A DNA stretch of 64,000 nucleotides from Vicinamibacterales bacterium (GTDB taxonomy: Bacteria; Acidobacteriota; Vicinamibacteria; Vicinamibacterales; UBA8438). Position 1 is the first letter of the stretch. Each line of letters starts with the position of its first letter. Made by a program: the position numbers and the translations under genes. The notes beneath the pieces are model-generated. The model saw nothing but the letters and a program-made list of their open reading frames with translations, ran no database searches and was not told the origin of the DNA. The stretch spans positions 1,461,627 to 1,525,626 of the forward strand of contig CBDBBK010000001.1 in the NCBI GenBank assembly GCA_965202655.1, in the 5' to 3' direction. This document shows, in pieces, positions 14,211 through 62,425 of the stretch.

Positions 14211-14274
14211 GGATCACTCCTGGTGCCGGCGGGGCAATCGGTCCTCCGGGCCGACCGTTCCGCGAGTATATCGC

Positions 14275-47341: not shown

Positions 47342-48403
47342 ATGCCGGCAGGACGCGTCGAGGCTGGCGGCGAACGCTCACTTTCCCCGTTTCCCGAGGG
47401 TTGGTACTTCGTTGCCAGCCGCGAATCCATCCTGAAAGCCAAGCTGATGCAAAGGACCTGGATGGGTGAAGAAGTCGTCGCCTGGTGCGACGACGCGGGC
47501 CGCATCGGCGTGGCCGTCGCGGTCTGTCCGCACTTGGGATCCAACCTCGGGCCGGCCAGCGGCGGCCGGGTGCGTGACGGCTGTCTCGTCTGTCCGTTTC
47601 ACGGCTTCGAGTTCGACGTCAGCGGCCAATGTGTCGCCACCCCTTTTGCGGAGCCCCCGAGGACCGCGAGACTGAGAACATTCCCGACGCGGGAGGTCCT
47701 CGGCATGGTCTTCGCCTGGTGGGGGATCGGCGGACGGTCACCACAATGGCATCTTCCCGAAGATCCGCCCACCGGCGACGACTGGTCGGACCTGGGATTC
47801 CGAACCCTGCGGTTTGCCGGGCACCCGCAGGAAACCACCGAGAACAGCGTGGACCTGGCACACCTGCGGTACGTGCACGGCTACGGCAACGTGGACCGGG
47901 TCGAACCGGTATCGGTGGAGGGCCCCCGTCTCAGGAGTCGCTTCGACTTCCGGCGCACCCGAACCATCGCCGGGTTCATCGAAACCGTATTCGACGTGTC
48001 CGCCACCGCCTGCATACTTGGGATGGGCTACTCGCTCGTGCAGATTCGCGAGCACACCATTGGAATGGACGCCCGTATGTGGGTGCTGGCAACACCCGTC
48101 GACGGCACCCGCATCGACATGGTGCTGGTCAGCCAGATACGGAAGATCCGTAGACCGAAACGGCCGATCGTCGGCCTGCGGTTCCTTCCGGTGAGCCTGA
48201 GAACCAAGCTCATGAACCAGATCATCCTGTCCACGCAGAAGAAGGACGTTCTGCAGGATGTGGTGATCTGGGAGCGGAAGCGGTATCGGCCCGTCCCGGC
48301 GCTGTGTCGTTCCGACGGCGAGATCGGCCTGTACCGACGTTATTGCAGACAGTTCTATCCAGACCCGCGGGATTCCGGTCAGGCCGAAGCCGCCACGGTG
48401 TAG
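47342..48403 (+). CDS. Rieske [2Fe-2S] non-heme iron oxygenase, alpha-subunit-only type (KshA/PaO-like)
   Basis: CPHLGSNL...CLVCPFHG (CxH...CxxH). ETTENSVDLAHLRYVH (E-x3-D-x2-H-x4-H mononuclear iron motif). Start ambiguous: ATG 47342 or GTG 47312. Confidence 0.8.
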   Translation: MPAGRVEAGGERSLSPFPEGWYFVASRESILKAKLMQRTWMGEEVVAWCDDAGRIGVAVAVCPHLGSNLGPASGGRVRDGCLVCPFHGFEFDVSGQCVATPFAEPPRTARLRTFPTREVLGMVFAWWGIGGRSPQWHLPEDPPTGDDWSDLGFRTLRFAGHPQETTENSVDLAHLRYVHGYGNVDRVEPVSVEGPRLRSRFDFRRTRTIAGFIETVFDVSATACILGMGYSLVQIREHTIGMDARMWVLATPVDGTRIDMVLVSQIRKIRRPKRPIVGLRFLPVSLRTKLMNQIILSTQKKDVLQDVVIWERKRYRPVPALCRSDGEIGLYRRYCRQFYPDPRDSGQAEAATV

Positions 48404-48516: not shown

Positions 48517-50538
48517 ATGACCGTTGCCGTGCAGTCTCCGATACGCCTTGCCGAAGAGCTGATTCTCCTAATGCTCGACGAGCAGAGCGGCTATTTGGAA
48601 ATGGTGCCGGGCTGGGATTTCTCCTGCGTCATGGCCGGGGCCGTACTCGCCGATCTGGCGCTGGAGGATCGCATCGACACCGACTTGAACACCCTGTATG
48701 TGGTGGATCCAAGCCCGACCGGAGACGACCTGCTCGACCCCGCGCTCAAGGAGATCGCCGAATCCCAGGAGAAGTCGGACGCTCAGTACTGGATTGAGCG
48801 GAACACGAACCGATCCAATGAAGTCGTCGCCGCCACGCTCGACAGGCTGGTGGAGAGGAAGATCCTCGACTACCAGAGCGGTGGTTTCTGGGGACTCTCG
48901 CGCTCCGTTTCACGTACGGGAACCTACCCGACCTCCGACGTTCAGGTCCGTCGCGAAGCCAAGCAGAGAATCCTGAACGTCATCCTGAACGACGTCATTC
49001 CCGACCCGCGCGACGCCATCCTCATCGCCCTGATGCACACGTGCGGCGGCTTCAAGCTGGTGCTTGAGCAGGAAGACTACGACGAGAAACTCGAACGGAT
49101 CGAGATGCTCGCCAGGCTCGATCTGATAGGGCGGACGGTTGCCGACGCGGTGAAGGACAGCACCGCCAAACCGAAATCCCGGCGTGCCGTGCAGACCAAG
49201 CCCATCCCCAGGCTTGGATACCTCGACATACTGCGGCAACCCGGCTTTCGCACCGGCAACATCGCGAAGGGACTGTACGGCATCTTCCAAGAGCATGGGC
49301 CGGTCGTCCGGATGCCCTTCAAGATGCGCAAGGCGCCGGTAATCGCCCTGTTGGGCGCCGAGACCAACCAGTGGCTCAACCGGCACGGGCGTTTCTTCGT
49401 TCGCTCCAAGGACTATATCCAGGATCTCGAGCGCGCCTTCGGCGCCACCCGAACGCTGCCCGGCCTGGACGGCTCCGAACACTACAAGATGCGCAAGTCG
49501 CTGCAGAGCGCCTATTCCCGCGCCGCGCTTGCGGATCGCCTGCCTGAGCTGATCCATCACTGCCGAGCCTCGCTGAAGCAATGGAACGAGGGCGACGTCT
49601 TCGTCGCATCTCCTAGTTTCAAGAAGCACATCAGCCGTCAGATTTCCCATCTGATGATCGGCGTGGACTGCCGGGATTACGTCGATGAACTGCTCGAATA
49701 TGAACACCGCGCGCTCATAACGCAGGTGACCGGCGTCCTGCCGCAGTTCATGCTCAAAACGCCCAGGATGAGGCGCTACCGGAAGCGGATCCGTGAACTT
49801 CAGGACGCGATAACCTCGTCGCACACGCCCGCCCAGCGGAAGGGAAAGCCGCCGGATCTGGCCGATGCAATCCTCGAACTCCACAAGAACGACCCCCTGT
49901 TCCTGCCGGAGACCGACATTACCTTTCCGTTTGTCGCGTCAATGGTCGCCAGCATCTATCTCGGCAGCGGAGTCGCTTTCGCGGTCTATTCCATGGCCCG
50001 GCGCCCGGAACTTTACGAGCAGGTCCATCGAGAGGCGGAAGCGCTCTTCGGCGGCGGACGTAAACCGGAGGCCGAAGAGTTCAATCTGGACAACATCGAC
50101 GTCACCCACCGCCTCTGCCTGGAGTCGGGGCGCCTGTACCCGGTCATTCCCTGGCAGTTGAGAACGGTCATGAACGAATGCGTCGTGAGTGGTTTCCAAA
50201 TACCGCCGAAGACTCACCTGCTGGTTTGCCAAACCGCGACCCACTATAACGAGAATCACTTCAGGGACCCGCTCGAATTCGACATAGACCGCTATCTGCC
50301 GGACCGTGCGGAACATACAGCCCCCGGCGCCTATGCTCCCTGGGGCCTGGGGACGCACACCTGCCTGGGAAACCGGTGGGTGGAGCTTCAGATGGCGGTC
50401 AACGTCCTGCTCATCGCTTACCACCTGAAGCTGGAAGTGACCCCGGCGGACTACAGGATGCGAATGAACCCGTTCCCGACCGCTTCCCCCGACAAGCGGT
50501 TGAAGTTCCGGGTCGCGGAAGTCACGAATCCGATCTGA
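48517..50538 (+). CDS. fusion protein: N-terminal GPP34/GOLPH3-like domain (~aa 1-215) + cytochrome P450 domain
   Basis: - N-terminus: LAEELILLMLDEQSGYLEMVPGWDFSCVMAGAVLADLALEDRIDTD...DDLLDPALKEI...VAATLDRLVERKIL.
- C-terminus: CLESGRLYP (ExxR), FRDPLEFDIDRY and YAPWGLGTHTCLGNRW (Cys ligand loop). Confidence 0.75.
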   Translation: MTVAVQSPIRLAEELILLMLDEQSGYLEMVPGWDFSCVMAGAVLADLALEDRIDTDLNTLYVVDPSPTGDDLLDPALKEIAESQEKSDAQYWIERNTNRSNEVVAATLDRLVERKILDYQSGGFWGLSRSVSRTGTYPTSDVQVRREAKQRILNVILNDVIPDPRDAILIALMHTCGGFKLVLEQEDYDEKLERIEMLARLDLIGRTVADAVKDSTAKPKSRRAVQTKPIPRLGYLDILRQPGFRTGNIAKGLYGIFQEHGPVVRMPFKMRKAPVIALLGAETNQWLNRHGRFFVRSKDYIQDLERAFGATRTLPGLDGSEHYKMRKSLQSAYSRAALADRLPELIHHCRASLKQWNEGDVFVASPSFKKHISRQISHLMIGVDCRDYVDELLEYEHRALITQVTGVLPQFMLKTPRMRRYRKRIRELQDAITSSHTPAQRKGKPPDLADAILELHKNDPLFLPETDITFPFVASMVASIYLGSGVAFAVYSMARRPELYEQVHREAEALFGGGRKPEAEEFNLDNIDVTHRLCLESGRLYPVIPWQLRTVMNECVVSGFQIPPKTHLLVCQTATHYNENHFRDPLEFDIDRYLPDRAEHTAPGAYAPWGLGTHTCLGNRWVELQMAVNVLLIAYHLKLEVTPADYRMRMNPFPTASPDKRLKFRVAEVTNPI

Positions 50539-50550
50539 GGTCTCCCGCCG

Positions 50551-51927
50551 TTACGCCTTCCTGAAGCGCCACCCATACATCGTCCGCCCGTAGAAGTTGA
50601 ACCACTTCCTGGCTTCGGAATCCCGGAACGGGTAGTCCGCGCCGATTTGCCTGGCCGTGACGAGGCCGGTCACGAAGCAGGTCTCCTGGCTGTTGACCAG
50701 CGTGTGGGCGCCGCAGTGCCACGTGCGCCGCCTGCCCTGAATGAAGCGGAAGAGCTGGACCAGCAACGTCACGTGACGCACGTCGTGCACGATGTGCTGA
50801 AACCACCACCGCTTGACGATCTTGTCTTCGTCGATACGGCTGATCGGATTGTAGGTCACCAGGCACGGCTTGTCCGATCCGTGCGCCCAGGGCTGCTGGT
50901 TGTGCATGATGTACGTGAGTTCGTAGTTGTCCGGTCTCACGCCGTACTGCTCGATGTGGTTACTCCGGGTGGCGAGCGGCTCGACCTCGTTGTCCGGGAG
51001 CACCGAGGCGTCCGAATGGACCACCGTATGGTTGTGCAGTTCGCTCTCGTAACGTACCGAGGATAGAAGCCAGCTCTCCAGCAGGGTCGGCTGGTCCAGG
51101 AGCATCAGCGTCTGATTCGCGTTGCACGCGAAGACGACTTCGTCAAACGTCTCCGTCGCTCCGTTCTCGTCCTCCACGACTACCTCGGCGGAGCGCCGGT
51201 ACACCTTTCGCACCGGGCGATCGAGATAGATCTTGTCCCGAAAGCCAGCCGACATTTCTTCGTAAATGCGCCGCGTGCCCCGGTCCCAGGTCCGCATCGG
51301 GGTGGCGGTTTCGATGTCGAAGAACTCCAGGTACCGCGCAAACAGGGACGCGGGCATGTCGAAGACGTTGGTGGCCATCAGGAAATTGACGAACATGGGT
51401 TTCAGGATCTTGTATCTGAAATCACCCGAGAACCTGCCCATATTGAGAACGGCGCCCATGCTGACGTAATTGAACGGGTTGAGGGCGTTCAGCAGCCTGG
51501 ACCTGGACCGGTTGAGACGGCCGAACCACTTCAGGCGTCTCAGCAGCTTCTGGAATCTCCGGATTTCCGGCTGTAATTGCCTCCTGATGTCGGAGTCGAA
51601 GTCGTGAGCATAGATACCGCCGCGGTACTTCACGCTGTAGTTGAACCTGGTATCGACGAGTTCGATACCGTGCTGCTCCAGGAACAGCAGAATGTGGTGG
51701 TATACGGAGGGAATGCACGCGGTGACGGAAATATCGAACGGAATCGTCGTTCCGTCGTCCTGCGGCATGTCGGCCGTCACCGCGTTGCCGCCGAGCCGGG
51801 AATGCCCTTCGAACAATCGAAAATCGAATCGATCGGGATGATGATGGAGCGCCCAGGCCGTCCCGAGCCCCGAGACTCCGCCACCAACGATCGCAACCCT
51901 TCTAGGCAGCGCCGCACCTCGCTTCAA
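50551..51927 (-). CDS. NAD(P)/FAD-binding oxidoreductase (amine-oxidase-like, COG2907-type)
   Basis: RVAIVGGGVSGLGTAWAL...RLFEGHSRLGGNA (Rossmann GxGxxG + hxhxE..xxGG). Convergent with the P450 gene, with a 12-nt gap. Confidence 0.7.
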   Translation of the reverse strand: MKRGAALPRRVAIVGGGVSGLGTAWALHHHPDRFDFRLFEGHSRLGGNAVTADMPQDDGTTIPFDISVTACIPSVYHHILLFLEQHGIELVDTRFNYSVKYRGGIYAHDFDSDIRRQLQPEIRRFQKLLRRLKWFGRLNRSRSRLLNALNPFNYVSMGAVLNMGRFSGDFRYKILKPMFVNFLMATNVFDMPASLFARYLEFFDIETATPMRTWDRGTRRIYEEMSAGFRDKIYLDRPVRKVYRRSAEVVVEDENGATETFDEVVFACNANQTLMLLDQPTLLESWLLSSVRYESELHNHTVVHSDASVLPDNEVEPLATRSNHIEQYGVRPDNYELTYIMHNQQPWAHGSDKPCLVTYNPISRIDEDKIVKRWWFQHIVHDVRHVTLLVQLFRFIQGRRRTWHCGAHTLVNSQETCFVTGLVTARQIGADYPFRDSEARKWFNFYGRTMYGWRFRKA

Positions 51928-51969: not shown

Positions 51970-54900
51970 TCACACGGCCACTGCCGCGAAGCTACGTGAA
52001 TTGGCACGCAAGTGGACGGCCATCAGCGCCGGCACCAGCAACATCAGTATCCCGGTCGAAATCATGATGCCGACGCCGAGCGCCGCAGCGAACGGGACCA
52101 GGAACTGCGCCTGTATCGACCGTTCGAGAATGAGCGGCGTGAACCCGAGGAAGGTGGTCAACGAGGTTAGCAGGATGGGACGGAAGCGCCCCTTGGCGCC
52201 CTCGACGATAGCCCGCTTCGGAGTGGCGCCCTCCCTGAGCCGTTGGTCGATGAAGTCAAGCATGACCAGCGAGTCGTTGACGACGACACCGCTGAGCCCG
52301 AAGAAGCCCAGGAACGAGGCGGCGCTCATGGGGATGCCGAGCACGAAGTGGCCGAGGACGACGCCGATGAGGCCGAACGGAATGATCGACATCACGATGA
52401 ACGGCTTGCCATAGGACCTCAGGGGAATGGCCAACAGCGCGAAGATTGCCAACATGGCGAGTGCGAAGCCTCGGTACAGAGCATCCAGTGACTGGAGTTG
52501 CTGCTGCTGTTCGCCACCGAAAGAGAAGGTCAACTCGGGATTATCGACGGTGAGTTGCGCAAGGACCGTCTCTTCGAGAATCGCATTCGCTTCCCCGCTC
52601 GAGATGGCGGTCTCGTCCACGTCCGCCGTCACCGTGACGACGCGCTGACCGTCCTCGCGCCGGACCAGCGGCGGCGAGGTTCCCATCTTCATCGATGCCG
52701 CCTGGCTGATGGGTACGTCGCCTCCCGAACGGGTGTGGATCAGGTAGCCCTCGACATCCGTGATCGCATCGCGCTCGTCGTCAGGCAGTCGCGCGTAGAC
52801 CCGGACTTCTTCCCGGCCGCGTTGCAGCCTCAGGGTCTCCACACCGAAAAATGCGGCCCGCACCTGCCGTGCCAGTTCCTCGACCGTCAGGCCGAGCGTT
52901 CGCGCCTCCGGCCGCAACTCCAACTGAATCTCGCCGATACCCGGCGCATGATCGGACCGGACATCGAACACGCCCGCGACGCCGCGCAGGCCGTCGACCA
53001 CCGAGTCCGCGATTGATGCCACTCGCTCCGGGTCCGGATGCGACAGAACTACATGGACAGGACTGCCGAGATTGATGACTTCTCCGCTGAAGGCAATCCC
53101 CCGAACGTAGGGCAAGACTCCGACTTCCTCCCGCCAGGCCTGCATCACGGCGATGGTGGACATGTCCCTCTGTTGGGAACTCAGCAGCTTGAATTCGATG
53201 GTGGCGATATTCGCTTCCGGGTTCATCGTGGGGGTCGGGTCAAGCCCTCCTCCCTCCACGCGGGCTCTCTGGCCGACGGTTACCGTCACGCCCGACAGCA
53301 ACGAAGGGGCGCCCGGCGGTCTTTCCTGGTCCAGGCCCTCCAGAACTCGCCGACCCGCACCCTCCAGTTCCATCGCCACCTCGTAGGTCCGCTCGGCGGG
53401 TGTTCCGTCCGGCATCTCGAGGGTGGCAGTGACGAAGTCGCCCTCCACGACGGGGGCGAAAGACGTCTGCACTATTCCTGCAGGTACCAGGGAAAGGCTG
53501 ACGACGAACAGGCCGACGATCCCCGCCATCACGATGACGGGATGATCCGTCGAGAAGCGCAGGCCTCGATGCAGGGGGCCGTTCACGAATCCCTCCAGCC
53601 CCCGATCCACGTAGTGCCGGATGGCTGCGAAGAACCGATCCACCATGCTGGTCGGCACCCAATCCGGCCCAGGGATATGGGACAGGTGGTTCGGCAGTAT
53701 CAGGAGCGCTTCGATGAGGGAGATCAGAAGCATGCCGATGAGGATCACCGGCAGCGCGCCCCACACTTCTCCGATGCCGCCGGGAATGAAGAGCAGGGGC
53801 GTGAACGCAGCCACCGAAGTCAAGACCGCGAATGTCAACGGATTCTTGATCCGTCGTGCGCCCCGGATCGCCGCGACGACCCCCGACACACCCCGCTTGC
53901 GTTCGTAGTGGACGTGTTCGCCGACGACAATGGCGTCGTCGACGATGATGCCAACAGCCAGGACGAAGGCGAATAGCGAAATGGTGTTGATGGCGAGGTC
54001 GAACACCAGCATGACGGCCAGCGTTCCGACGCCGGACACGAGCAGGCCGAGGACAACCCACAACGCAAGCCGTATCTCAAGGAACAGAGCCAGGGAGATA
54101 AACACCAGGAGAAGTCCGAGAACCCCGTTCTTGGCGAGGATGTCGGCCCGCTCCGAGTAGGTCTGCGAGTCGTCGTTCCAGATAGTGATCCCGACGTCAT
54201 CGGGCAACGAGGGAATGATGACGTTCGCCGTATGTTCGTGTACGGCCTCGGCAACATCCATCACCTGCTCGCCGTCGGCCAGGAAGACCTCAACGAAAAC
54301 CGCCGGGTGACCCTCGTGCCGGACGATCAGGTCAGAGTCCTGAAAGGCGTCACGTACTTCGGCAATGTCCCCGAGGCGCACGACCGTGCCGTCGTTCCGT
54401 GCGAGGACTACGATCTCCTCGAAGTCGAGCTGATCGTAGCTCTGGCCGATGGTACGAACGCGCACCTGGGCGCCTTCCGTATCGATACTGCCGGCCGAAA
54501 GGTCGAGGGAACTGCGGCGGACCGCACTCGCGATGTCGTCGAGCGTTATCCCCAGGGCGCGCAGACGGACGAGCGGCACTTCGATTGAGATCTCGTAGTT
54601 TCTCGTCCCGGTCGTCTCGACATGGGAGACATCCGGCAGCGCACTCAGACTGTCCTCGAACTGGTGGGCCAACTCCTTGAGCGATCGCTCGGGGATATCG
54701 CCATACACGACCAGACGGATCATGCTGGTGCGGTTGTCCATCTCCCTGAACTGGGGACGCTCGGCCGCACCGGGAAACGACTGGATGCGAGCGACCGAGG
54801 ACTGGACCTCGTCCATGGCCTCGCTGATATCGGTGCCGGTCTTCAGTTCGACCCTCACGGATGCCAGCCCCGGGGCCGCCAGGGATTTGACCGCGCTGAC

Positions 54901-55167
54901 ATCCTGCAGCGCCTCGACCTGCTCCTCGATCTTGACGATGATCGACTCCTCCACCTCCTCGGGCGTGGCGCCGGGATAGACCATCGACACTTCGATGGTA
55001 TTGAACGGAACCGTTGGCCACGCTTGCCGTTCGAGCGCGCCCAGTGCTACCAGGCCGGCCGCCAGGATGCCGAACATCAACAGATTGGCGGCGACGCGGT
55101 TGCTCGCCATGTAGGCGATGGGTCCGCCCGGCTCTCCGTGTTGGGCGTCGGTCTGACTCGGGCTCAC
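51970..55167 (-). CDS. RND efflux transporter permease (AcrB/AcrD/AcrF family)
   Basis: 1065 aa with a 12-TM pattern. IAYMASNRVAANLLMFGILAAGL, IVDDAIVVGE and VVNDSLVMLDF. The GTG start overlaps the MFP stop (GTGA). Confidence 0.9.
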   Translation of the reverse strand: MSPSQTDAQHGEPGGPIAYMASNRVAANLLMFGILAAGLVALGALERQAWPTVPFNTIEVSMVYPGATPEEVEESIIVKIEEQVEALQDVSAVKSLAAPGLASVRVELKTGTDISEAMDEVQSSVARIQSFPGAAERPQFREMDNRTSMIRLVVYGDIPERSLKELAHQFEDSLSALPDVSHVETTGTRNYEISIEVPLVRLRALGITLDDIASAVRRSSLDLSAGSIDTEGAQVRVRTIGQSYDQLDFEEIVVLARNDGTVVRLGDIAEVRDAFQDSDLIVRHEGHPAVFVEVFLADGEQVMDVAEAVHEHTANVIIPSLPDDVGITIWNDDSQTYSERADILAKNGVLGLLLVFISLALFLEIRLALWVVLGLLVSGVGTLAVMLVFDLAINTISLFAFVLAVGIIVDDAIVVGEHVHYERKRGVSGVVAAIRGARRIKNPLTFAVLTSVAAFTPLLFIPGGIGEVWGALPVILIGMLLISLIEALLILPNHLSHIPGPDWVPTSMVDRFFAAIRHYVDRGLEGFVNGPLHRGLRFSTDHPVIVMAGIVGLFVVSLSLVPAGIVQTSFAPVVEGDFVTATLEMPDGTPAERTYEVAMELEGAGRRVLEGLDQERPPGAPSLLSGVTVTVGQRARVEGGGLDPTPTMNPEANIATIEFKLLSSQQRDMSTIAVMQAWREEVGVLPYVRGIAFSGEVINLGSPVHVVLSHPDPERVASIADSVVDGLRGVAGVFDVRSDHAPGIGEIQLELRPEARTLGLTVEELARQVRAAFFGVETLRLQRGREEVRVYARLPDDERDAITDVEGYLIHTRSGGDVPISQAASMKMGTSPPLVRREDGQRVVTVTADVDETAISSGEANAILEETVLAQLTVDNPELTFSFGGEQQQQLQSLDALYRGFALAMLAIFALLAIPLRSYGKPFIVMSIIPFGLIGVVLGHFVLGIPMSAASFLGFFGLSGVVVNDSLVMLDFIDQRLREGATPKRAIVEGAKGRFRPILLTSLTTFLGFTPLILERSIQAQFLVPFAAALGVGIMISTGILMLLVPALMAVHLRANSRSFAAVAV

Positions 55168-56387
55168 GGCGCGCCTCCGGGATCCATACGAACCGGCATA
55201 CCCTCGGTTGCCACCTGGATTCCACCGACGACGACTGCCTGGCCCGCATCGAGCTCGCCGGTCAGGAACACCTCGTCATCCGACCGCTGCAGGACGTCCA
55301 CCGGAACAATGTGCACCAGGTCGTTGCGCACCGCCCAGACTTCGTTTCCCGGCCTGAGAGCCGCCCGACGCACCCTGAAGTACTCGTCCGGAGCGATTCC
55401 GTCGATTTCAACTTCCACGAACTTGCCGACGAGCAGCGGCGGACCGGCGTGGCCCCCGGTTTCGACGCCAGCGGCCGCACTTATCGATGAACCTCCCGCG
55501 AACGGTTCCGGGACGCGCACGATCACGTCGATCGTGCGCGTCAGCTCGTCGAGGGCCGTCTCGGCCCGGTCCACGTAGCCTGCCCACGTGTAGTGCGCGT
55601 CGCCGTACTCGGCGGTCACACGTACCGGCACCTGACGGTCGGCACTGCCGGCTTCGAGCTCCCACAGGCCCGGGATGAGTGCCGCGCCGGCGTCAGACAA
55701 CGGAACCACCACCTCCACCGCGTCGGCAGCATAGAGGCGTCCCACACCCTGGCCGGCCGTCACGAACTGGCCCACGTCCAGCGATTCCTCGAGGACGACG
55801 CCCGTAAAGGGCGCATGGACTTCGGTCCGTGACAAGGCCAGCTCGGCCTCCGCCAGCACCGCGCGGTTTCTGGCCAGCACCGCCTCGGCGGCTTCCATCT
55901 GCGGTTCCCACAGCGCCAGGGGACTGGTCTCGGCGACGGACGCGCCCTCTTCCCGCAGACTTCTGAAGCGTTCGTACTGGGACCGCGCGACCCGGGCTTC
56001 TTCCGTTACCCGCAGTACCTCAACCTCCTGGACGGCCACGCTCGCCCGCGCCTGCTCTACCGCGTTGCTGTAGTCAGCGTCATCGATGCGAAAGAGCAAC
56101 TGGCCCTCGTCCACCCGCCCCCCGCTTTGGAAGGTCGGGTCGACCCACACGACCCGGCCGGTGATCTCGGCCGCTACGTCCACTTCGGCGCGCGGGCGAA
56201 CCGTGCCCGCTCCGTAGACGGGAATGGAACCGGCGCCGGCAACCACAGGCGCCGTGGTCGCGAACGGAATGCGCGACGGGACCTCCTGGCGGGCAGGCTC
56301 GGGCCTGCCGGAAACCAGAACCCAGGCCACACCCGCGGACCCCGCGAGGATGGCGACGACCACGGCGGCGCTGACTAGTCTGTTCAT
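55164..56387 (-). CDS. RND efflux periplasmic adaptor (membrane fusion protein)
   Basis: Start ATG 56387 (MNRLVSAAVVVAILAGSAGVAWVL). GRVVWVDPTFQSGGRVDEGQLLFRIDDADY. Coiled-coil hairpin region. APFTGVVLEESLDVGQFV. Confidence 0.85.
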   Translation of the reverse strand: MNRLVSAAVVVAILAGSAGVAWVLVSGRPEPARQEVPSRIPFATTAPVVAGAGSIPVYGAGTVRPRAEVDVAAEITGRVVWVDPTFQSGGRVDEGQLLFRIDDADYSNAVEQARASVAVQEVEVLRVTEEARVARSQYERFRSLREEGASVAETSPLALWEPQMEAAEAVLARNRAVLAEAELALSRTEVHAPFTGVVLEESLDVGQFVTAGQGVGRLYAADAVEVVVPLSDAGAALIPGLWELEAGSADRQVPVRVTAEYGDAHYTWAGYVDRAETALDELTRTIDVIVRVPEPFAGGSSISAAAGVETGGHAGPPLLVGKFVEVEIDGIAPDEYFRVRRAALRPGNEVWAVRNDLVHIVPVDVLQRSDDEVFLTGELDAGQAVVVGGIQVATEGMPVRMDPGGAP

Positions 56388-56395
56388 CGGTTGCG

Positions 56396-57967
56396 TCAAT
56401 CCCTGGCTTGTTGTTCGGCCAGTCCGTCGGCATGATCGGAATGCGCCGTCGCGTCCGGGGCATCCGGCACTACCGGGGCAACCCAGGCGCCGCCCAAGGC
56501 GCGGTGCACCGCAAGACGCGCCAGTGCGAGATCGCGTTGGACGCCGATGAGCGCGAACTCGACGTTCAGGACGGCGCGCAACGCGTCGAGGAAATCCGCG
56601 TAGCCGCCGATGCCGGCCGCGTAGCGCTCCGACCGGAGATCCAGGGTTGCCTGGGCCTCCTCCTGCCGCGACACCAGAAACGCGTGACGCCGGCCCTCGC
56701 TCTCGAGCCCGGCCAGGGCCGCTTCGACCTCGTTGACGGCCGTGACCACCGTACGCCCATAGGCAGCCGCCAGCTCGTTGAATCGCGCCTCCGCGAGAGC
56801 CACCCGGGTCTCGCGCTGGCCGCCGTCGAAGACCGGCTCCAGCAGGTTGGCCGCGAGATTGGTGAACCATTGGTTCACGTTGAACCAGTCGCCGATCCGC
56901 GCACTCTGGAGCCCGATCGAGCCTCTGAGCGAGAGCGTGGGCATGAGCTCTGCGACGCGGGCCTGGACGGCGAAGCCGGCCGCATCCAGGCGATGGCCGG
57001 CAGCCTGCACATCCGGCCGCTGAAGCAGCAGGTCGGCCGGGATACCGGTCGGCACCGGGTCCGGCGGCGGCGCCGGTGAGACCGTATCGGGCAGTATCGC
57101 TTCCAGGTCTTCCCGGTAGCCGCCCAGGAGCGTCGCGAGGCGTCCTTCGGCGGCAGCGAGCCGGTGCTCCAGTTGCGGCAGGCCCGCCTGCGTCTCGCGC
57201 AACTCCTGACGCACGCGGTACAGATCCAGGGAGTCGGCCAGTCCGCGAGCGTAACGGGTCGCGGCCACTTCCTCGCGCTCCAGCAGGACGTCCACCGTCT
57301 CCTGCACGAGGGCCATCCGCTGGCGGAGGTCGACAATCTCGAAGTACGCCGCGACCGTCTCCGAGAGTATCCCGATGCGGACGGCCTGCAGGTCCGATTC
57401 CGAGGCTAGGTAGTCGGCGCCGGCCGCCAGACGGCTGCTGCGAACGCGGCCCCAGAAGTCGAACTCGTAGGCGACGTCCGCGCTCAACGCGTAGTTGGTG
57501 AGCCCCAGCCGGTCGGGCAGCGCGAAGTCATCGCCCACGGCGCCGAGCAACTCCTCCAGGCCGAGTTCCTGCACCTGCGCGCCGATGCCGGCGTTGGTCG
57601 GCGACCGGAAGTCGTCGACGCCGGCCCGCGCCCCGATGACCGGGAAGATCGCGGCCTTGGCCAACAGGGCCGTCTCCCTGGCCTGTTCGACCCGGGCAAC
57701 CGCCTCCGCCATGTCGAAGTTGGAGGCGAGGGCCCTGTCGACGACCTCATCGAGCACCGGATCGCCGAACGCGCGCCACCATTCCAGCGGCTCGTACGCG
57801 CCCGCGACGGCGCCCTCGGCGAATTGACCGGGGACTTCCGGCGGATCGGATTCGAGTTCCGGCAATTCCGGTCGCGCGCCCAGCGCACACGCGGCGCACG
57901 CGCAACTCGCGAGGACGGCCAATGGCCGAACACAGTCGCCAAGACGGCGCAACCAGGGAGCGGACAT
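56396..57967 (-). CDS. efflux outer-membrane factor lipoprotein (NodT/TolC family)
   Basis: Lipobox LAVLASC. PEWWRAFGDPVLDEVV-like region. Two repeated TolC-type halves (YLASESDLQAVRI..., ARFNELAAAYGRTVVTAVNEVE). Confidence 0.8.
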   Translation of the reverse strand: MSAPWLRRLGDCVRPLAVLASCACAACALGARPELPELESDPPEVPGQFAEGAVAGAYEPLEWWRAFGDPVLDEVVDRALASNFDMAEAVARVEQARETALLAKAAIFPVIGARAGVDDFRSPTNAGIGAQVQELGLEELLGAVGDDFALPDRLGLTNYALSADVAYEFDFWGRVRSSRLAAGADYLASESDLQAVRIGILSETVAAYFEIVDLRQRMALVQETVDVLLEREEVAATRYARGLADSLDLYRVRQELRETQAGLPQLEHRLAAAEGRLATLLGGYREDLEAILPDTVSPAPPPDPVPTGIPADLLLQRPDVQAAGHRLDAAGFAVQARVAELMPTLSLRGSIGLQSARIGDWFNVNQWFTNLAANLLEPVFDGGQRETRVALAEARFNELAAAYGRTVVTAVNEVEAALAGLESEGRRHAFLVSRQEEAQATLDLRSERYAAGIGGYADFLDALRAVLNVEFALIGVQRDLALARLAVHRALGGAWVAPVVPDAPDATAHSDHADGLAEQQARD

Positions 57968-58109: not shown

Positions 58110-59879
58110 TCACTCCGGCAGCGCGAACACCCAGACGACGCCGCTGCCCTGCGGCAACGTGAGGTCGGTCAGCCGGGCGTAGGACGTCGTCTGACCGATG
58201 CGGCCGCCCGCGCCGACGGCAAGGTACTGGCGGCCGTCGATCTCGAAGGTGACGGGCGCGCCGGAGATGTCGCCGTTGAGGCGCGTCTCCCAGAGCAGGT
58301 CGCCGCTGTCGGCGTCGAGCGCGAAGAAGCGGCGGTCCGCCGTGCCGCCGAAGACGATGCCGCCGGCGGTGGCGAGCGCCGAGGCGGTCATCGGGGCGCC
58401 GCTCTCCGGGCGGTACTCCCACGCGCGCTGGCCGGAAACCGGATTGAACGCGACGAACTCCCCGATGTAGTCGTAGCCGGGAACCATCTTCACCCGGCTG
58501 CCCATACCCCGATAGATGCGCCCCGGCTGGTACTCCTCCGAGACGAACGTCACGTCCATGCAACTGTTGTTGATACCGGAGTAGTAAAGGCCGGTCTCCG
58601 GGCTGAAGCTGGGGGAGTTCAGGTTGCGCGCCCCATGGAAGTGGGGACACACCTCGAAGATCCGATCCGAATCGACGTCGTCCAGCGTCGGTATCTGCTC
58701 CGGATTGAAGATGGGGCTGCCGGTGTCGGTCCAGCCGGTGATGATGTTGTCGTAGCCGGTCCGGAACGCGTTGATGAAACGGCCGGTCTCGCGGTCGAGC
58801 ACGACGCCCCAGCCGATCTTGCTCGTCTCGATCAGCGCCTTCCGCTCGACCCCGTCGATGACCAGATCGACCAGCATGCTCTCGTGGGTCGCATCCAGAT
58901 CCCAGTTGTCCGACGGAACGACCTGGAAGTACCACTCGATCTCGCCGGTGTCGAGGTCGAGGGCGAGAATGCAGTTCGTGTAGAGCGCATCGCCCGGGCC
59001 GCGCAGGGTGGACGCCCACGGCGTGGGCTGCCCCGTGCCGAGATAGATCAGGCCGAGTTCGGGGTCGTAGCTGATGGTGTTCCAGGTCAAGCCGCCCAGC
59101 GGCGGGATCTCGCGCTCGGTCCAGGTCTCGTAACCCGGCTCCCCGGGCGCCGGCACGGTGTAGGTGGTCCAGATGTGCTCGCCCGTCTCGGCATCGTGCG
59201 CCACTACGACGCCGCGCCCGCTCCGGTCGCCGCCGGCGAAGCCGAGCACGACCTTCCCGTCGGCGATCAGGGCCGGGTGGCTGTGCCCCAGGCCGGTGCT
59301 GTAGTCGCCGGTGCTCACCTCCCAGCGCTGTTCCCCGGTCAGGGCGTCCAGCGCAACCAGCGCGGCGTCGGCCGTTCCCCAGTAGATAGTGTCGCCGTAG
59401 ACCGAGACGCCGCGATGCCGGCCGAGCGCCTGCGATTTCTCGATGTCTTCCGGGTAGCTCCGCGTATGCATCCAGGCGACGTCGCCGGAGACCGCGTCGA
59501 AGGCGATCACGCGGCCGCTTCCCTCGGCGACGTACATCAGTCCGTTGGCGACAATCGGTGTCGGCACCCAGCGGCTGTTGTCGCGCACCGACCACGCCCA
59601 GACCATGCGCAGGTCGCCGACGTTGCCGCGATTGATCTGATCGAGCGGACTGAAGCCGGTCACGTCATAGGTCCGCCGGTAGTTCATCCAGTCGCCGTCT
59701 TCCGGGTTGAGCAGCCGCTCCTCGGTGATCGGCTCCCAGTCCCGCTCCTGCGACTGCCCCCGCGCGGCCTCCGCCTGGATCACGAGCACGCCGAGCAGGC
59801 ATGCCAGCACGCACCGTCCGCGTCCACCGTCTCGCATCGTCTGTCTCCTCGTTTCCGATAGCCCCGGCCGGAACATCAT
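58110..59879 (-). CDS. PQQ-dependent dehydrogenase (methanol/ethanol family quinoprotein)
   Basis: DGDWMNYRRTYDVTGFSPLDQIN, TPIVANGLMYV, GGLTWNTISYDPELGLIYLGTG, ALDLDTGEIEWYFQVVPSDNWDLD and GGIVFGGTADRRFFALDADSGDLLWE. The start could be ATG 59837. Confidence 0.85.
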   Translation of the reverse strand: MMFRPGLSETRRQTMRDGGRGRCVLACLLGVLVIQAEAARGQSQERDWEPITEERLLNPEDGDWMNYRRTYDVTGFSPLDQINRGNVGDLRMVWAWSVRDNSRWVPTPIVANGLMYVAEGSGRVIAFDAVSGDVAWMHTRSYPEDIEKSQALGRHRGVSVYGDTIYWGTADAALVALDALTGEQRWEVSTGDYSTGLGHSHPALIADGKVVLGFAGGDRSGRGVVVAHDAETGEHIWTTYTVPAPGEPGYETWTEREIPPLGGLTWNTISYDPELGLIYLGTGQPTPWASTLRGPGDALYTNCILALDLDTGEIEWYFQVVPSDNWDLDATHESMLVDLVIDGVERKALIETSKIGWGVVLDRETGRFINAFRTGYDNIITGWTDTGSPIFNPEQIPTLDDVDSDRIFEVCPHFHGARNLNSPSFSPETGLYYSGINNSCMDVTFVSEEYQPGRIYRGMGSRVKMVPGYDYIGEFVAFNPVSGQRAWEYRPESGAPMTASALATAGGIVFGGTADRRFFALDADSGDLLWETRLNGDISGAPVTFEIDGRQYLAVGAGGRIGQTTSYARLTDLTLPQGSGVVWVFALPE

Positions 59880-59882
59880 GCC

Positions 59883-61961
59883 TCAGGGCAGCCTGAGCGC
59901 CGCGAGCGATCCCGGCAGATCCGGCCCCGCCACCTGGACGACGATGTACTGCCGGCCCTCGTGCTGATAGCCCATCATTCCGTACTGGCCCGAGGCGGGC
60001 AGGTCCACCGTGCCGAGCCGCTCTCCGGTCCGCTTGTCGAGCGCGTGCAGGCGGGGCGCGCCGGCCCGGCCCTCGGCCGTGATCAGCAGCGTCCCGGTGA
60101 CCATCGTGACCGCGTGCGACGTCTGCCCGGTGTTCGGCAGGTCCACGCCCTGCAGGGCCGGGTGATTGCGGATGCGCTCCGGCGTGTCGCCGTTGGGCGT
60201 CTCCCAGAGATGCTCGCCGGTGTTCATGTCGATGGCGACGATGCGGCTGTAGGGCGGCTTGAAGATGGGCAGCCCCTGCGGCCCGCGGAAGTCGCCGCGG
60301 TTGACGACCGCGAAGTCGGCGATCGTCCGGCCGGTCGTCTTGATGTCTGCCGGCGCGTCGATCAACTCCCCCGGCACGATGTTCTCGGAGCGGCAGCCGC
60401 GCTGCGTCGAGACGTAGAGGATGCCGGTCTCGGGATCCGCCGACGTCGGCCCGAAGATGTTCGACGCCCCGCTCGGGCAACTGACGAACGACCGCAGTCC
60501 CGACGGATGGCCCCGCTGGATCGGCGGATTGAAGATGGGGCCGAGCCGGTAGTTCCGGATGATCTCGAGCGCCTCGGCCCGCAGCTCCGGCGTGAAGTCG
60601 ATGAGGTCGTCCTCGGTGAGGCCCTGCATCTCGTACGGCGCCGGCCGGGTCGGCATCGGCTGCGTCGGCGAGAGCCGCTCCCCCGGAACCTCGGACTGGG
60701 GCACCGGCCGCTCCTCGATCGGCCAGATCGGCTCGCCGGTTACCCGGTCGAACGTGAATGCCCAGCCCTGTTTGGTGGTCTGCACGACGATCTGCCGCGG
60801 CCGGCCGTCCACGGTGACGTCGAGGGCGACCGGCGCGGTCGGATTGTCGAAGTTCCAGATGTCGTGGTGCACCGTCTGGAAGTGCCACGCCCGCTCGCCG
60901 GTCTCGACGTCGAGGGCGATGACGCTCGTCCCGAACAGCCCGTCACCGGGACGGAAGCCGCCGTAGAAGTCAATGGTGGGCGGATTGGTCGGGACGTAGA
61001 CGAGCCCCTGTTCCGGGTCGGCGGAAATGGGCGCCCACGACGAAACGTCGCCCGTCCACTCCCACGCGTCGTTCTCCCACGTCTCGTGGCCGAATTCGCC
61101 GGGGCGCGGGATGACGTGGAACTTCCACTTGTGCTCGCCGGTCCGCGCGTCATAGCCGAGGATGTCGCCCGGCACGTTCTCGACGCGGGTCTGGTTGTAG
61201 CCCTGCTCCGCCGAGTTGCCGACGACCACGACCCCGTTGACGACGATGGGAGGCGACGAGCTGGTGATGTACCCGAGCTCGCGCGGGATGCCGAAGTCGG
61301 GATCGTAGGCCCCGTCCCAGCTCTCCCAGGGTCCCCAGTCGGCGATCAGGTCAGGCAGCATGTCGACCACGCCGGTCTGCGGGAACCCGGGAAGCGGCAC
61401 CGGGCTGCCCCAGCCCTCAAGCGGGCGGCCCGTCTTCGCGTCGAGCGCGTGGAGGAAGAAGGCGGGGCTGATGATGTAGAGGATCCCGCGGCCGTCCACC
61501 TCGGCGTAGGCCACGCCCTTGCCGTAGCCGTTGCGCATTCCGCGGTCGAACCGGGTGGTGTGCGGCTCGCGGTAGGTCCAGAGCGTCTCGCCGCTCGCCG
61601 GATCGATCGCCACCACGTTGCGCCGCTCGCCGGCGACGGTGTAGAGCACGCCATCGACGTAGATCGGCGTCGAGCGCGATGTCCCGAGCGTGCCCGGGCC
61701 GTAGTTGTCGCCCCGCCAGACCCACGCCACCTCCAGATCCTCGAAGTTGTCGGCGGTGATCTGATCGAGGCCGGAGTACCGCGTGTGCGCGGCGTCGCCG
61801 CCGATGTAGCGCCACTCACCGGCGGACGCGTCGTCCCCCTGGGCGCCGGCCGCGGCCGACATCAGCAGCACGCCGGCGGCTGCCCCCGCCGCAACCGCCG
61901 CCGCGACGGCAGCCTTGGCGAACACGCCGAAAGGACTCCTTGCGCTTGCGACCCGTTTCAT
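59883..61961 (-). CDS. PQQ-dependent dehydrogenase (soluble glucose/quinate-type quinoprotein), secreted
   Basis: Start ATG 61961 (MKRVASARSPFGVFAKAAVAAAVAAGAAAGVLLMSAAAGA) overlapping the cytochrome c stop (ATGA). GEWRYIGGDAAHTRYSGLDQIT, TPIYVDGVLYTV, ALDVETGERAWHFQTVHHDIWNFD and GTLLITAEGRAGAPRLHALDKRTGERL. Confidence 0.85.
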   Translation of the reverse strand: MKRVASARSPFGVFAKAAVAAAVAAGAAAGVLLMSAAAGAQGDDASAGEWRYIGGDAAHTRYSGLDQITADNFEDLEVAWVWRGDNYGPGTLGTSRSTPIYVDGVLYTVAGERRNVVAIDPASGETLWTYREPHTTRFDRGMRNGYGKGVAYAEVDGRGILYIISPAFFLHALDAKTGRPLEGWGSPVPLPGFPQTGVVDMLPDLIADWGPWESWDGAYDPDFGIPRELGYITSSSPPIVVNGVVVVGNSAEQGYNQTRVENVPGDILGYDARTGEHKWKFHVIPRPGEFGHETWENDAWEWTGDVSSWAPISADPEQGLVYVPTNPPTIDFYGGFRPGDGLFGTSVIALDVETGERAWHFQTVHHDIWNFDNPTAPVALDVTVDGRPRQIVVQTTKQGWAFTFDRVTGEPIWPIEERPVPQSEVPGERLSPTQPMPTRPAPYEMQGLTEDDLIDFTPELRAEALEIIRNYRLGPIFNPPIQRGHPSGLRSFVSCPSGASNIFGPTSADPETGILYVSTQRGCRSENIVPGELIDAPADIKTTGRTIADFAVVNRGDFRGPQGLPIFKPPYSRIVAIDMNTGEHLWETPNGDTPERIRNHPALQGVDLPNTGQTSHAVTMVTGTLLITAEGRAGAPRLHALDKRTGERLGTVDLPASGQYGMMGYQHEGRQYIVVQVAGPDLPGSLAALRLP

Positions 61962-62425
61962 GGCGCCTCCACGATCTCCATCCCCTGCAGCTCCTGCAGA
62001 CTGGCTGGCAGTTCCGCCTCCCCGGCCGGATAGCCGTTCAGTTGCAGGAGGTAGGCCACCACCGACGCGTACTCCGCCGGGCGGAGGCTTCCCGGATCCC
62101 CTTCCGGCATCAGGGTCGCGATGGTATCGAACAGGTCTCCGGCGGTCTGGCCGACCCAGGTCAGGCGGAACCGGCCGCCCGAGAACTCCCCGGTGTCGTG
62201 ACAGGCCGCGCAGACCTGCCGGAACGTCTGCTCGCCGCGCGACGCCTGGGCGTCGCTGAACACGCCGTCCGCCACCGAGCCATGCGACTGCCGGCCCGCC
62301 GCGCCAGGCGACGCGGCTCCGGTCGGGCACCCTTCCGGTTCGGCCGCGAGCGCCGGCGCCTGTCCCGCACAAACGATGCCGAGGACCAACGCGGCCCAGA
62401 CGGCCGGGACACGAGGTTTCACCAC
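61958..62425 (-). CDS. mono-heme c-type cytochrome, secreted
   Basis: Signal peptide; GEQTFRQVCAACHD (CxxCH); TIATLMPEG (distal Met region). Confidence 0.8.
   Translation of the reverse strand: MVKPRVPAVWAALVLGIVCAGQAPALAAEPEGCPTGAASPGAAGRQSHGSVADGVFSDAQASRGEQTFRQVCAACHDTGEFSGGRFRLTWVGQTAGDLFDTIATLMPEGDPGSLRPAEYASVVAYLLQLNGYPAGEAELPASLQELQGMEIVEAP

Follow-up and report, generated by a model that had tools for sequence, protein, structure and literature searches.

A clade of GPP34–cytochrome P450 fusions in sponge symbionts: an I-helix without its acid–alcohol pair and a gene neighbourhood pointing to sterol tailoring and export

A bacterial gene that joins a GPP34 (GOLPH3-like) domain to a cytochrome P450 raises two questions: which reaction does such a P450 carry out, and what does the GPP34 domain contribute to it? 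The gene considered here lies in a 64,000-nucleotide stretch of DNA that was analysed as a whole (the window). It belongs to a family already on record: GPP34_L, described in 2025 in Microbiome (PMC11706023), comprises 656 GPP34+P450 proteins that form a monophyletic group in sponge symbionts. The same study reports expression in sponge, and proposes that the proteins bind host PI4P and interfere with phagosome maturation. The window gene encodes GPP34 and P450 in one polypeptide, its homologs come nearly all from metagenome-assembled genomes (MAGs) of sponge and coral symbionts, and it is a member of GPP34_L; its architecture is thus not new. A first-pass annotation of this DNA, which knew of no described GPP34–P450 architecture, was wrong on this point: the PF05719 plus PF00067 search that it proposed, now run, finds the combination in the precomputed Pfam architectures of every close homolog. 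An exact look-up of the 673-aa protein matched no record. The 2025 study contains no enzymology, no I-helix analysis and no neighbourhood analysis of GPP34_L, and the terms sterol, efflux and methyltransferase are absent from it. What is added here is a clade-specific I-helix loss, an apparently mobile cluster, adjacency to sterol operons and the absence of PI4P-pocket residues.

The fusion gene and its parts are as follows.

48517..50538, + strand: GPP34–P450 fusion gene, 673 aa (uninterrupted ORF, ATG start)
48547..49155, + strand: GPP34 (GOLPH3-like) domain, aa 11-213 (PF05719; hhalign to human GOLPH3)
49156..49200, + strand: basic interdomain linker, aa 214-228 (alignment, charge calculation, lowered pLDDT)
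49201..50535, + strand: cytochrome P450 domain, aa 229-673, pI 9.1 (PF00067; Foldseek)
49921..49998, + strand: I-helix, aa 469-494, broken at Y481 (translation, template alignments, DSSP)
50362..50364, + strand: codon of the heme-thiolate ligand Cys616, inside WGLGTHTCLG (translation, alignments)

Pfam bears out both domains named by the first-pass annotation. GPP34 is matched by PF05719 over aa 11-213 (E=3.4e-38; 132 bits versus a cutoff of 29.1), spanning profile positions 1-199 of 201, and the P450 by PF00067 over aa 229-645 (E=1.7e-32; 113 bits versus a cutoff of 22.8). The linker is strongly basic (pI ~11.7, computed for aa 214-232), and neither a signal peptide nor a TM segment was detected in the protein. 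An AlphaFold check, also suggested at first pass, yields a confident two-domain AF2 model (pLDDT 89.3, pTM 0.84); with 29 close homologs as input the GPP34 part remained at pLDDT <50, and it was modelled once divergent fusions were added. Could the gene be an artefact, either two separate genes merged wrongly in sequencing or assembly, or a pseudogene in decay? In Actinobacteriota, GPP34 genes that stand alone with a P450 gene close by do exist. This explanation is nevertheless already refuted, and its probability is close to nil: more than 120 clusters at 90% identity have the same two-domain architecture at lengths of 671-675 aa, and the fusion is encoded by 80 species-representative genomes, some of them closed chromosomes. 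Alignments of orthologs start at residue 1 and cross the linker without frameshift, the ORF has a coding-type GC3 of 0.79, and dN/dS values of 0.09-0.28, far below 1, indicate purifying selection on both domains. The common length of the orthologs and the uninterrupted frame dispose of a frameshift or missed stop, either of which would have spoken against the one-gene reading, and that reading stands.

The P450 signatures listed at first pass (ExxR, FxxPxxFDxDR, WGLGTHTCLG) are intact: E536 and R539 of ExxR, R592 of the PERF motif (FDIDRY) and C616 of the Cys loop WGLGTHTCLG do not vary among 51 divergent fusions. In the I-helix, the segment VASIYLGSGV (aa 477-486, nt 49945-49974) contains neither an acid nor a Thr. 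Its register was set by three solved templates that agree with one another: ASIYLG aligns to AGHHTS of Methylococcus CYP51, AGQHTS of human CYP51 and AGHETT of the CYP102-type P450DA. Since the three templates agree and intermediates within the family read AGHYT, Y481 takes the place of the acid and L482 that of the Thr (nt 49957-49962). The first-pass claim that the acid–alcohol pair is missing therefore survives alignment to P450 structures, but its register, VASIYL on AGHETT, was off by one residue. DSSP applied to the AF2 model gives two helices, 469-480 and 482-494, with a break at Y481, a residue that practically every primary copy of the fusion retains. The acid–alcohol pair is missing from every member of the clade of the window gene; divergent fusions retain AGxDT, and intermediates have AGHYT. 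The loss is a derived trait of one clade inside the family and not a property of the fusion as such.

Several P450s, namely CYP74, CYP8A1/CYP5A1, CYP152, EryF and P450cin, are missing one or both members of the acid–alcohol pair with which O2 is activated; none of them is known to have a conserved Tyr in place of the acid. CYP74 has, in addition, a modified heme-binding loop. The heme loop of the fusion is of the canonical FxxGxHxCxG type, which argues against CYP74-like membership. In Foldseek, the structural neighbours (TM 0.80-0.84 to CYP184A1, CYP51, CYP120A1 and BM3) are lipid P450s throughout, and CYP51 is not separated from fatty-acid or retinoid P450s. The top PDB match of the clade profile is CYP51 (E=2e-24), yet at ~20% identity and lacking the AG(Q/H)HTS signature the fusion P450 is not a CYP51. 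NCBIfam holds no equivalog for the P450, nor for the neighbouring Rieske and FAD proteins described below.

The GPP34 domain aligns to human GOLPH3 at 96.7% probability (hhalign). The PI4P pocket of GOLPH3, defined by mutagenesis as W81, R90, R171 and R174 (human numbering), is poorly preserved. W81 alone of the four is retained, as the invariant W33; R90 is replaced by A40, R171 by N101 and R174 by V104, the alignment being less certain near R171/R174, and a 10-residue deletion relative to GOLPH3 adjoins the pocket. Charge is altered as well: the window domain is acidic (pI 4.43) whereas GOLPH3 residues 59-275 have a pI of 8.35, and across the family the median pI is 4.65, with values <5.5 in 47/51 members. 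PI4P-type lipid binding is not supported, with one pocket residue of four kept in an acidic domain; judged from residues and charge, GPP34 is best read here as something other than a GOLPH3-style PI4P binder. A role as a targeting or partner-binding module, suggested at first pass, is still viable. The first-pass observation is confirmed and its interpretation is right in part. The AF2 model predicts a β-hairpin at aa 117-127 (strands 117-120 and 124-127), on which F124 and W125 are invariant. An acidic GPP34 domain would not be expected to bind electrostatically to anionic bacterial membranes. Elsewhere in bacteria, fusions of GPP34 to Rieske oxygenases occur but are rare, and where GPP34 is a gene by itself it adjoins LpxB.

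Which genes accompany the fusion was counted at 59 species-level loci, each of at least 18 kb. The neighbours in the window, with their occurrence at these loci, are the following.

47231..48403, + strand: KshA-type Rieske oxygenase (Pfam Rieske and KshA_C; 41/59 loci)
50551..51927, - strand: FAD amine-oxidase-like oxidoreductase, FAO (Pfam Amino_oxidase and NAD_binding_8; 19/59 loci)
51970..55167, - strand: RND (AcrB-type) inner-membrane efflux pump (ACR_tran, E=3e-155; 54/59 loci)
55164..56870, - strand: membrane-fusion (HlyD-type) adaptor, MFP (HlyD_3 and HlyD_D23; 54/59 loci)
56396..57967, - strand: outer-membrane factor (TolC-like), OMF (OEP, E=3e-44; 42/59 loci)

The Rieske gene lies upstream of the fusion, co-oriented and 113 bp away. 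Its coordinates are those of the longest ORF, and its start is probably near 47342, since orthologs have ~357 aa. The Rieske 2Fe-2S motifs CxH/CxxH (CPH...CPFH) and the mononuclear-iron motif DxxHxxxxH (DLAHLRYVH) are present. The top PDB matches are KshA 4qdc and 2zyl (E ~1e-23), so that its nearest solved relatives are steroid 9-alpha-hydroxylases; assignment as an SdmA equivalog is ruled out (31 bits versus a cutoff of 600). The FAD oxidoreductase is convergent with the fusion, 12 bp past its stop codon, has LkcE as top PDB match (E=1e-22) and is ~84% identical across taxa. The ORF of the HlyD-type adaptor is probably too long at its 5′ end, as orthologs have ~405 aa. An EamA gene upstream of the Rieske gene was rejected as a conserved cluster member (0/59 loci). 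The window, which is acidobacterial, also encodes an ankyrin-repeat protein of a type typical of symbionts. No sterol methyltransferase (SMT) or core sterol gene occurs within the 64 kb of the window. GC and GC3 of the cluster genes are below those of the surrounding genome.

Across the 59 loci, this neighbourhood is conserved. At least one efflux component is present at all of them, the RND pump at a median gap of 144 bp from the fusion, and at least one of Rieske, SMT and FAO at 55/59; SMT is found at 33 loci and is absent nearby at the other 26. Gene order differs among three phyla, which speaks for a functional link and against inherited synteny, and independent contigs from sponge metagenomes repeat the pattern. 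Between phyla, neighbour proteins share 50-84% identity; together with the lowered GC and GC3, this fits a mobile island. The methyltransferase neighbour scores 62-74 bits for Sterol_MT_C (cutoff 21.7) and has the SMT signature regions GWGESLHFAP, VDVGCGIGGP and YAIESTCHAPDK; symbiont SMTs of this kind have been found active on sterols (PMC10070321). No ferredoxin or reductase that could serve as redox partner is encoded in the cluster or recurs across the loci. Two recurrent families from crude ORF calling (u7 and u8) were rejected as antisense ORFs of the outer-membrane-factor gene, and with them u7 as a DHCR24 homolog.

At two loci, the link with sterols is direct. Locus L084 (Rhodothermales) encodes the fusion, an SdmB-like protein, an SdmA-like Rieske protein, ERG24, CYP51 (E=2.7e-100 to Methylococcus CYP51), an SE/OSC fusion and SMT. 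Locus L080 (Ca. Porisulfidus) has the sterol genes of L084 followed, co-directionally, by SMT, the GPP34–P450 fusion, OMF and MFP. A complete sterol operon lies within 10 kb of the fusion at only these 2 of the 80 loci, which belong to two phyla. In the divergent fusions with a canonical I-helix the sterol and efflux context is absent; the sterol/efflux reading can therefore not be extended to all GPP34_L proteins. One pattern-based metagenome scan did not place the fusion on JGIcombinedJ30088_10000835, a scaffold with experimentally validated SMTs; gene 10 of this scaffold, between its two SMTs, is unlisted.

The gene neighbourhood, which was out of sight at first pass, gives the strongest lead to function: it suggests that sterols are tailored and exported, and not that the host phagosome is evaded. 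The protein would be a cytoplasmic two-domain enzyme with a heme-binding P450 domain, and one component of a module, horizontally mobile, that occurs in sponge-associated Acidobacteriota, Rhodothermales and Gammaproteobacteria. Alongside the fusion, this module has a Rieske oxygenase of the KshA type, often an SMT and the FAD oxidoreductase, and nearly always a tripartite RND pump. Its most likely function is to modify oxidatively a sterol that the bacterium makes or derives from the host, and the adjacent pump may handle the product or the substrate. We infer that GPP34 is an accessory module of a P450 acting on a membrane lipid; it may serve in docking, substrate hand-over or partner binding, for which the conserved aromatic hairpin and a charge complementary to that of the basic P450 domain are possible means. 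Taken as a whole, the reading of a P450 that tailors sterols and is coupled with an exporter, its GPP34 module not binding PI4P, has slightly better than even chances. The commonest partner, the efflux pump, is equally compatible with generic detoxification, and Rieske enzymes of the KshA_C type and E-class P450s also take non-steroid substrates.

Three rival readings were weighed. In the first, the locus is a defence island: toxic sponge lipophiles other than sterols are modified by the four enzymes (P450, Rieske oxygenase, methyltransferase, FAD oxidase) and expelled by the RND pump. In its favour, the efflux genes are the most constant neighbours (54/59 for RND and MFP) and lie next to the fusion; sponge terpenoids and brominated alkaloids are candidate toxins. 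The window locus itself is without a sterol gene, the cluster moves across phyla as resistance islands do, and at one locus (L004) a TetR regulator gene sits beside the OMF gene, ~3 kb from the fusion. Xenobiotic defence is still unlikely, given a methyltransferase partner with a sterol-specific C-terminal domain and SMT signature regions, a Rieske partner closest to steroid hydroxylases, and fusions inside or beside de novo sterol operons in two phyla. Less credit still goes to the published proposal (PMC11706023) of an effector that binds host PI4P, acts against phagosome maturation and lets the symbiont survive in sponge cells, with the P450 in some supporting role. Homology of GPP34 with GOLPH3 and Vps74, expression in sponge, near confinement of the family to sponge and coral symbiont MAGs and the ankyrin-repeat protein of the window are in its favour. 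It has to contend with the replacement of three of the four pocket residues and the deletion beside them, with acidity where GOLPH3 is basic, with a protein devoid of signal peptide and TM segment, with strong purifying selection on the P450 catalytic core, and with tight linkage to metabolic enzymes, a sterol operon and an efflux pump instead of secretion systems.

The third alternative concerns chemistry. A P450 that does not activate O2 could rearrange its substrate or use peroxide, in the manner of CYP74, CYP8A or CYP152, and would need no redox partner. The clade-wide absence of the acid–alcohol pair and of a recurrent ferredoxin or reductase agrees with this, and epidioxysterols are common sponge lipids; sterol hydroperoxides and 5,8-epidioxysterols are candidate substrates. 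Such chemistry is nonetheless unlikely. The heme loop is canonical, and EryF, P450cin and CYP51 with its His use O2 although the acid or the Thr is missing from them. Tyr481, invariant and placed at the kink of the helix, could be a substitute proton relay, and a linked redox partner is commonly missing for bacterial P450 genes.

Sponge microbiomes contain this family in abundance, spread by horizontal transfer, and its sole published hypothesis is PI4P-mediated phagosome evasion. The non-conserved pocket is a direct, testable challenge to that model (PMC11706023). Attention shifts to sterol metabolism: the fusion travels with SMTs, an efflux pump and a Rieske oxygenase of steroid type, and in two phyla it shares one operon-like block with a whole sterol pathway. 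The fusion thereby becomes a concrete candidate for missing bacterial steps of sterol tailoring and for a route of sterol export from symbiont to host; both matter to the debate over a bacterial contribution to the sterol biomarkers of sponges. For the study of P450 mechanism, a single clade that has exchanged the O2-activating pair for Tyr-Leu, through intermediates that can be traced, offers a clean natural experiment. It is tempting to go further and to propose that bacterial GPP34 is an ancient accessory module for membrane-lipid enzymes, and that the P450 of this clade, with its invariant I-helix tyrosine doing duty for the acid–alcohol pair, performs a non-canonical sterol transformation, the RND pump then exporting the product into the sponge; this is a long shot. 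If true, the unusual sterol inventories of sponges would be shaped by their symbionts, a point of importance for sterane biomarkers, and the lipid-membrane and glycosyltransferase role of GOLPH3 in eukaryotes would have a sterol-linked bacterial antecedent.

Among known systems, GPP34_L is the closest: the window gene has the identical two-domain architecture and the taxa are shared (Acidobacteriota, Proteobacteria, Bacteroidota and others), whereas the PI4P/phagosome model attached to the family is unsupported here by residue conservation or charge. Sponge-symbiont sterol clusters (Kelly 2022, PMC9531527; Brown 2023, PMC10070321) resemble the fusion loci in habitats, taxa and horizontal transfer. 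Their gene set, SMT, CYP51, ERG24, SE/OSC and SdmAB, is contiguous with the fusion in L080 and L084; most fusion loci differ in having SMT alone without the core pathway, and the GPP34–P450, the KshA-type Rieske oxygenase and the RND pump are not cluster members in either of these studies. CYP51 is the top profile match among solved structures (structural TM ~0.83), likewise has its I-helix acid replaced, by His, and shares the sterol-cluster context. True CYP51 genes (E=1e-100, AGQHTS) nevertheless occur at fusion loci alongside a fusion P450 that is distant from them, has lost the Thr too and has GPP34 as its partner, whereas Methylococcus CYP51 is fused to ferredoxin. CYP74, CYP8A1/CYP5A1, CYP152, EryF and P450cin show an I-helix loss like that of the fusion clade, but have only the P450 fold in common with it, no closer sequence relationship being detected. 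GOLPH3/Vps74, finally, are homologous to GPP34 in fold, with the W81 equivalent kept and a β-hairpin predicted in the fusion; the equivalents of R90, R171 and R174 and the basic charge are absent from the bacterial domain, which is joined to an enzyme presumably located in the bacterial cytoplasm, whereas GOLPH3/Vps74 is a PI4P-binding Golgi adaptor of glycosyltransferases.

The GPP34-P450 fusion stands in the window together with the following genes:

19063-20541, minus strand: ankyrin-repeat protein (492 aa, repeats nearly throughout, Ank_2 E=1e-60)
20541-21896, minus strand: DUF1552 (HXXSHH) protein
40713-45800, plus strand: 1213-aa protein whose N-terminus carries CxxCH heme-binding motifs, then a DUF1501 protein
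47231-48403, plus strand: KshA-type Rieske oxygenase, 113 bp upstream of the fusion
48517-50538, plus strand: GPP34-P450 fusion ORF (673 aa, uninterrupted, ATG start)
50551-51927, minus strand: FAD amine-oxidase-like protein, convergent with the fusion
51970-57967, minus strand: RND pump, membrane-fusion and outer-membrane components, convergent with the fusion
58110-62372, minus strand: a pair of neighbouring PQQ-dependent dehydrogenase genes (589 and 829 aa), just past the efflux genes

The fusion is genuine, because its Pfam architecture is common to >120 protein clusters (67-97% identity, 671-675 aa), it is encoded in 80 species-representative genomes, of which several are closed chromosomes, orthologs align from residue 1 on through the linker, and dN/dS ranges over 0.09-0.28 for the GPP34 domain and 0.14-0.19 for the P450 domain. 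Codon bias is of coding type (GC3 0.79). Pfam calls both domains far above curated cutoffs, GPP34 (PF05719) at aa 11-213 (E=3.4e-38) and p450 (PF00067) at aa 229-645 (E=1.7e-32), the latter with ExxR, FDIDRY and the Cys loop WGLGTHTCLG. The first-pass annotation had correctly read one unsplit gene with these domains and motifs; its view that the architecture was undescribed does not hold. The window gene belongs to the published ‘GPP34_L’ family (GPP34 + P450; 656 proteins, monophyletic, found in sponge symbionts only, in many phyla), reported with rare GPP34-Rieske and GPP34-PotA fusions (PMC11706023, Microbiome 2025), the only paper on the fusion that a literature search returned.

The I-helix acid-alcohol pair, noted as missing in the same annotation, is indeed absent, at a register one residue away from that proposed. 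HMMER alignments of the window protein and of a clade profile agree across three solved templates: ASIYLG, within residues 477-486 (VASIYLGSGV), pairs with AGHHTS of Methylococcus CYP51, AGQHTS of human CYP51 and AGHETT of the CYP102-type P450DA, which places Y481 at the acid position and L482 at the Thr position. A high-confidence AF2 model (pLDDT 89.3, pTM 0.84) interrupts the I-helix precisely at Y481, between helices 469-480 and 482-494, where canonical P450 I-helices have their kink. When representatives were searched exhaustively with the P450 domain, AG(L/M/I)DT proved to be retained in most relatives, among them many divergent GPP34-P450 fusions 640-690 aa long, AGHYT or AGHYL occurs in a few as an intermediate motif, and the window's clade has A(S/A)(I/L)Y(L/M), with Tyr in essentially every copy examined. 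Loss of the pair is thus derived and clade-specific, a property of one lineage and not of the fusion as such. CYP51 is nearest by profile (E=2e-24), yet the fusion P450 is itself not a CYP51; structure comparison places it among lipid-oxidising E-class P450s. It may either activate O2, with Tyr481 as substitute relay, or use peroxides. Several loci hold a second GPP34-P450 paralog at most 10 kb from the first (~40-45% identity), with AGHYL or AGHYV in the I-helix:

L073:7741-9741, minus strand
L064:8116-10158, minus strand
L079:923-2953, minus strand
L054:873-2846, minus strand

These intermediate motifs near the first copy suggest that the gene duplicated locally and that the pair was lost step by step.

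Neighbours were counted by tblastn with window-derived queries in 59 species-level loci, each of at least 18 kb. An RND pump (median gap 144 bp) and a membrane-fusion protein each lie near the fusion in 54 loci, an outer-membrane factor in 42, a Rieske protein in 41, a ~350-aa methyltransferase in 33 and an FAD oxidase in 19. The association is kept across phyla despite varying gene order, with 50-84% cross-phylum identity among the neighbour proteins, and recurs in independent sponge metagenome contigs. The closest solved relatives of the Rieske neighbour are steroid 9-alpha-hydroxylases, and it is not an SdmA equivalog. The methyltransferase, with Sterol_MT_C scores of 62-74 bits (cutoff 21.7) and all three signature regions, is by its sequence a sterol methyltransferase (SMT); symbiont SMTs of the same kind methylate sterols in vitro (PMC10070321). 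A PQQ protein also lies near the fusion in one other locus (L003) and is not recurrent in the cluster. The CxxCH/DUF1501 and DUF1552 genes are unrelated to it; such families are frequent in Acidobacteriota, Planctomycetota and Verrucomicrobiota. Where divergent fusions have a canonical I-helix, their contexts are unrelated (acyl-CoA ligases, CoA-transferases, FMO-like genes, transposases). One such locus, L086 (P0141), carries a divergent GPP34-P450 with AGLDT, two acyl-CoA ligases and CoA-transferase subunits; two Tn5-like transposase genes of identical length (530-2869 and 12673-15012, 779 aa each) flank this whole set, and it looks like a composite transposon with a different GPP34-P450 pathway.

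The closest relatives of a housekeeping fumarase in the window are Acidobacteriota proteins, and ankyrin-repeat proteins are a eukaryotic-like class typical of sponge symbionts. Fusion orthologs, nearly all from sponge or coral metagenome MAGs, occur at 56-85% identity in Acidobacteriota, Rhodothermales, Gammaproteobacteria, Latescibacterota and others. Together with the lower GC of the ~47-58 kb block (0.61-0.65, against ~0.68-0.70 in most other parts of the window) and its GC3 below that of flanking genes, these identities across phyla indicate horizontal transfer. The fusion of L006 (CAZHTD010000039.1), labelled ‘uncultured Bifidobacteriaceae bacterium’, shares 85% identity with the acidobacterial window gene and is nearly identical in coding sequence to that of another locus (L001); the L006 bin is probably taxonomically mis-assigned.

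A complete bacterial sterol pathway adjoins the fusion in two loci of different phyla. In L084 (Rhodothermales), the order is fusion, SdmB-like 3-beta-HSD/epimerase, SdmA-like Rieske (VanA_C type), ERG24, CYP51 (E=2.7e-100 to Methylococcus CYP51), fused squalene epoxidase/oxidosqualene cyclase and SMT. In L080 (Ca. Porisulfidus), the same sterol genes recur in that order, and behind them come SMT, fusion, outer-membrane factor and membrane-fusion protein, with a single strand shared throughout. The fusion stands at opposite operon ends, so the two arrangements have independent origins. The core pathway lies within 10 kb of the fusion in only these 2 of 80 loci, and the 64-kb window holds no sterol genes. 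By analogy with L080, two SMT-adjoining genes without assigned sterol function, in published sterol clusters of Supplementary Data 1 of Brown 2023 (PMC10070321), one on the experimentally validated SMT scaffold JGIcombinedJ30088_10000835 and the other T. swinhoei MAG gene 2690455921, could be candidate GPP34-P450s. For fusions with Tyr at the acid position, oxidative sterol tailoring is somewhat favoured; it would proceed inside a mobile module of fusion, steroid-type Rieske oxygenase, SMT, FAD oxidoreductase and efflux pump. At least one pump component is present in 59 of 59 loci, and at least one of Rieske, methyltransferase and FAD oxidase in 55 of 59. Generic detoxification with efflux is an unlikely rival reading.

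The published proposal, that GPP34 binds host PI4P and phagosome maturation is thereby evaded, comes from a paper in which sterol, efflux, methyltransferase and signal peptide all go unmentioned (PMC11706023). Human GOLPH3 aligns by profile with the fusion domain (96.7% probability) and its W81 is kept as invariant W33, but R90, R171 and R174 are replaced by A40, N101 and V104, and 10 residues are deleted beside the pocket. The domain is acidic (pI 4.4; family median 4.65, 47/51 below 5.5), whereas GOLPH3 residues 59-275 are basic (8.35); the linker has pI 11.7 and the P450 domain 9.1 (family median 9.15). No signal peptide or TM segment was found in the fusion protein. The replaced pocket residues, acidic pI and lack of such segments argue against both GOLPH3-style PI4P binding and a secreted-effector role, and the effector model is improbable. 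In the fusion model a GOLPH3-like beta-hairpin is predicted, in which F124 and W125 are invariant, and the model's high pTM suggests fixed packing of the two domains. These results are compatible with GPP34 as an accessory to the P450; the domain may contact the membrane through its hairpin, hand over substrate, or dock to a partner or within the protein through charge complementarity.

Standalone GPP34 genes (33-35% identity to the fused domain) also occur in two metagenome contigs, probably of one lineage, immediately ahead of a co-directional LpxB gene (lipid-A disaccharide synthase), and a DUF2382 gene comes next in both:

L105:9947-10690, plus strand: standalone GPP34
L108:6616-7332, plus strand: standalone GPP34

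A bacterial GPP34 adjoining LpxB, a peripheral-membrane glycosyltransferase, is reminiscent of GOLPH3/Vps74, which bind Golgi glycosyltransferases.
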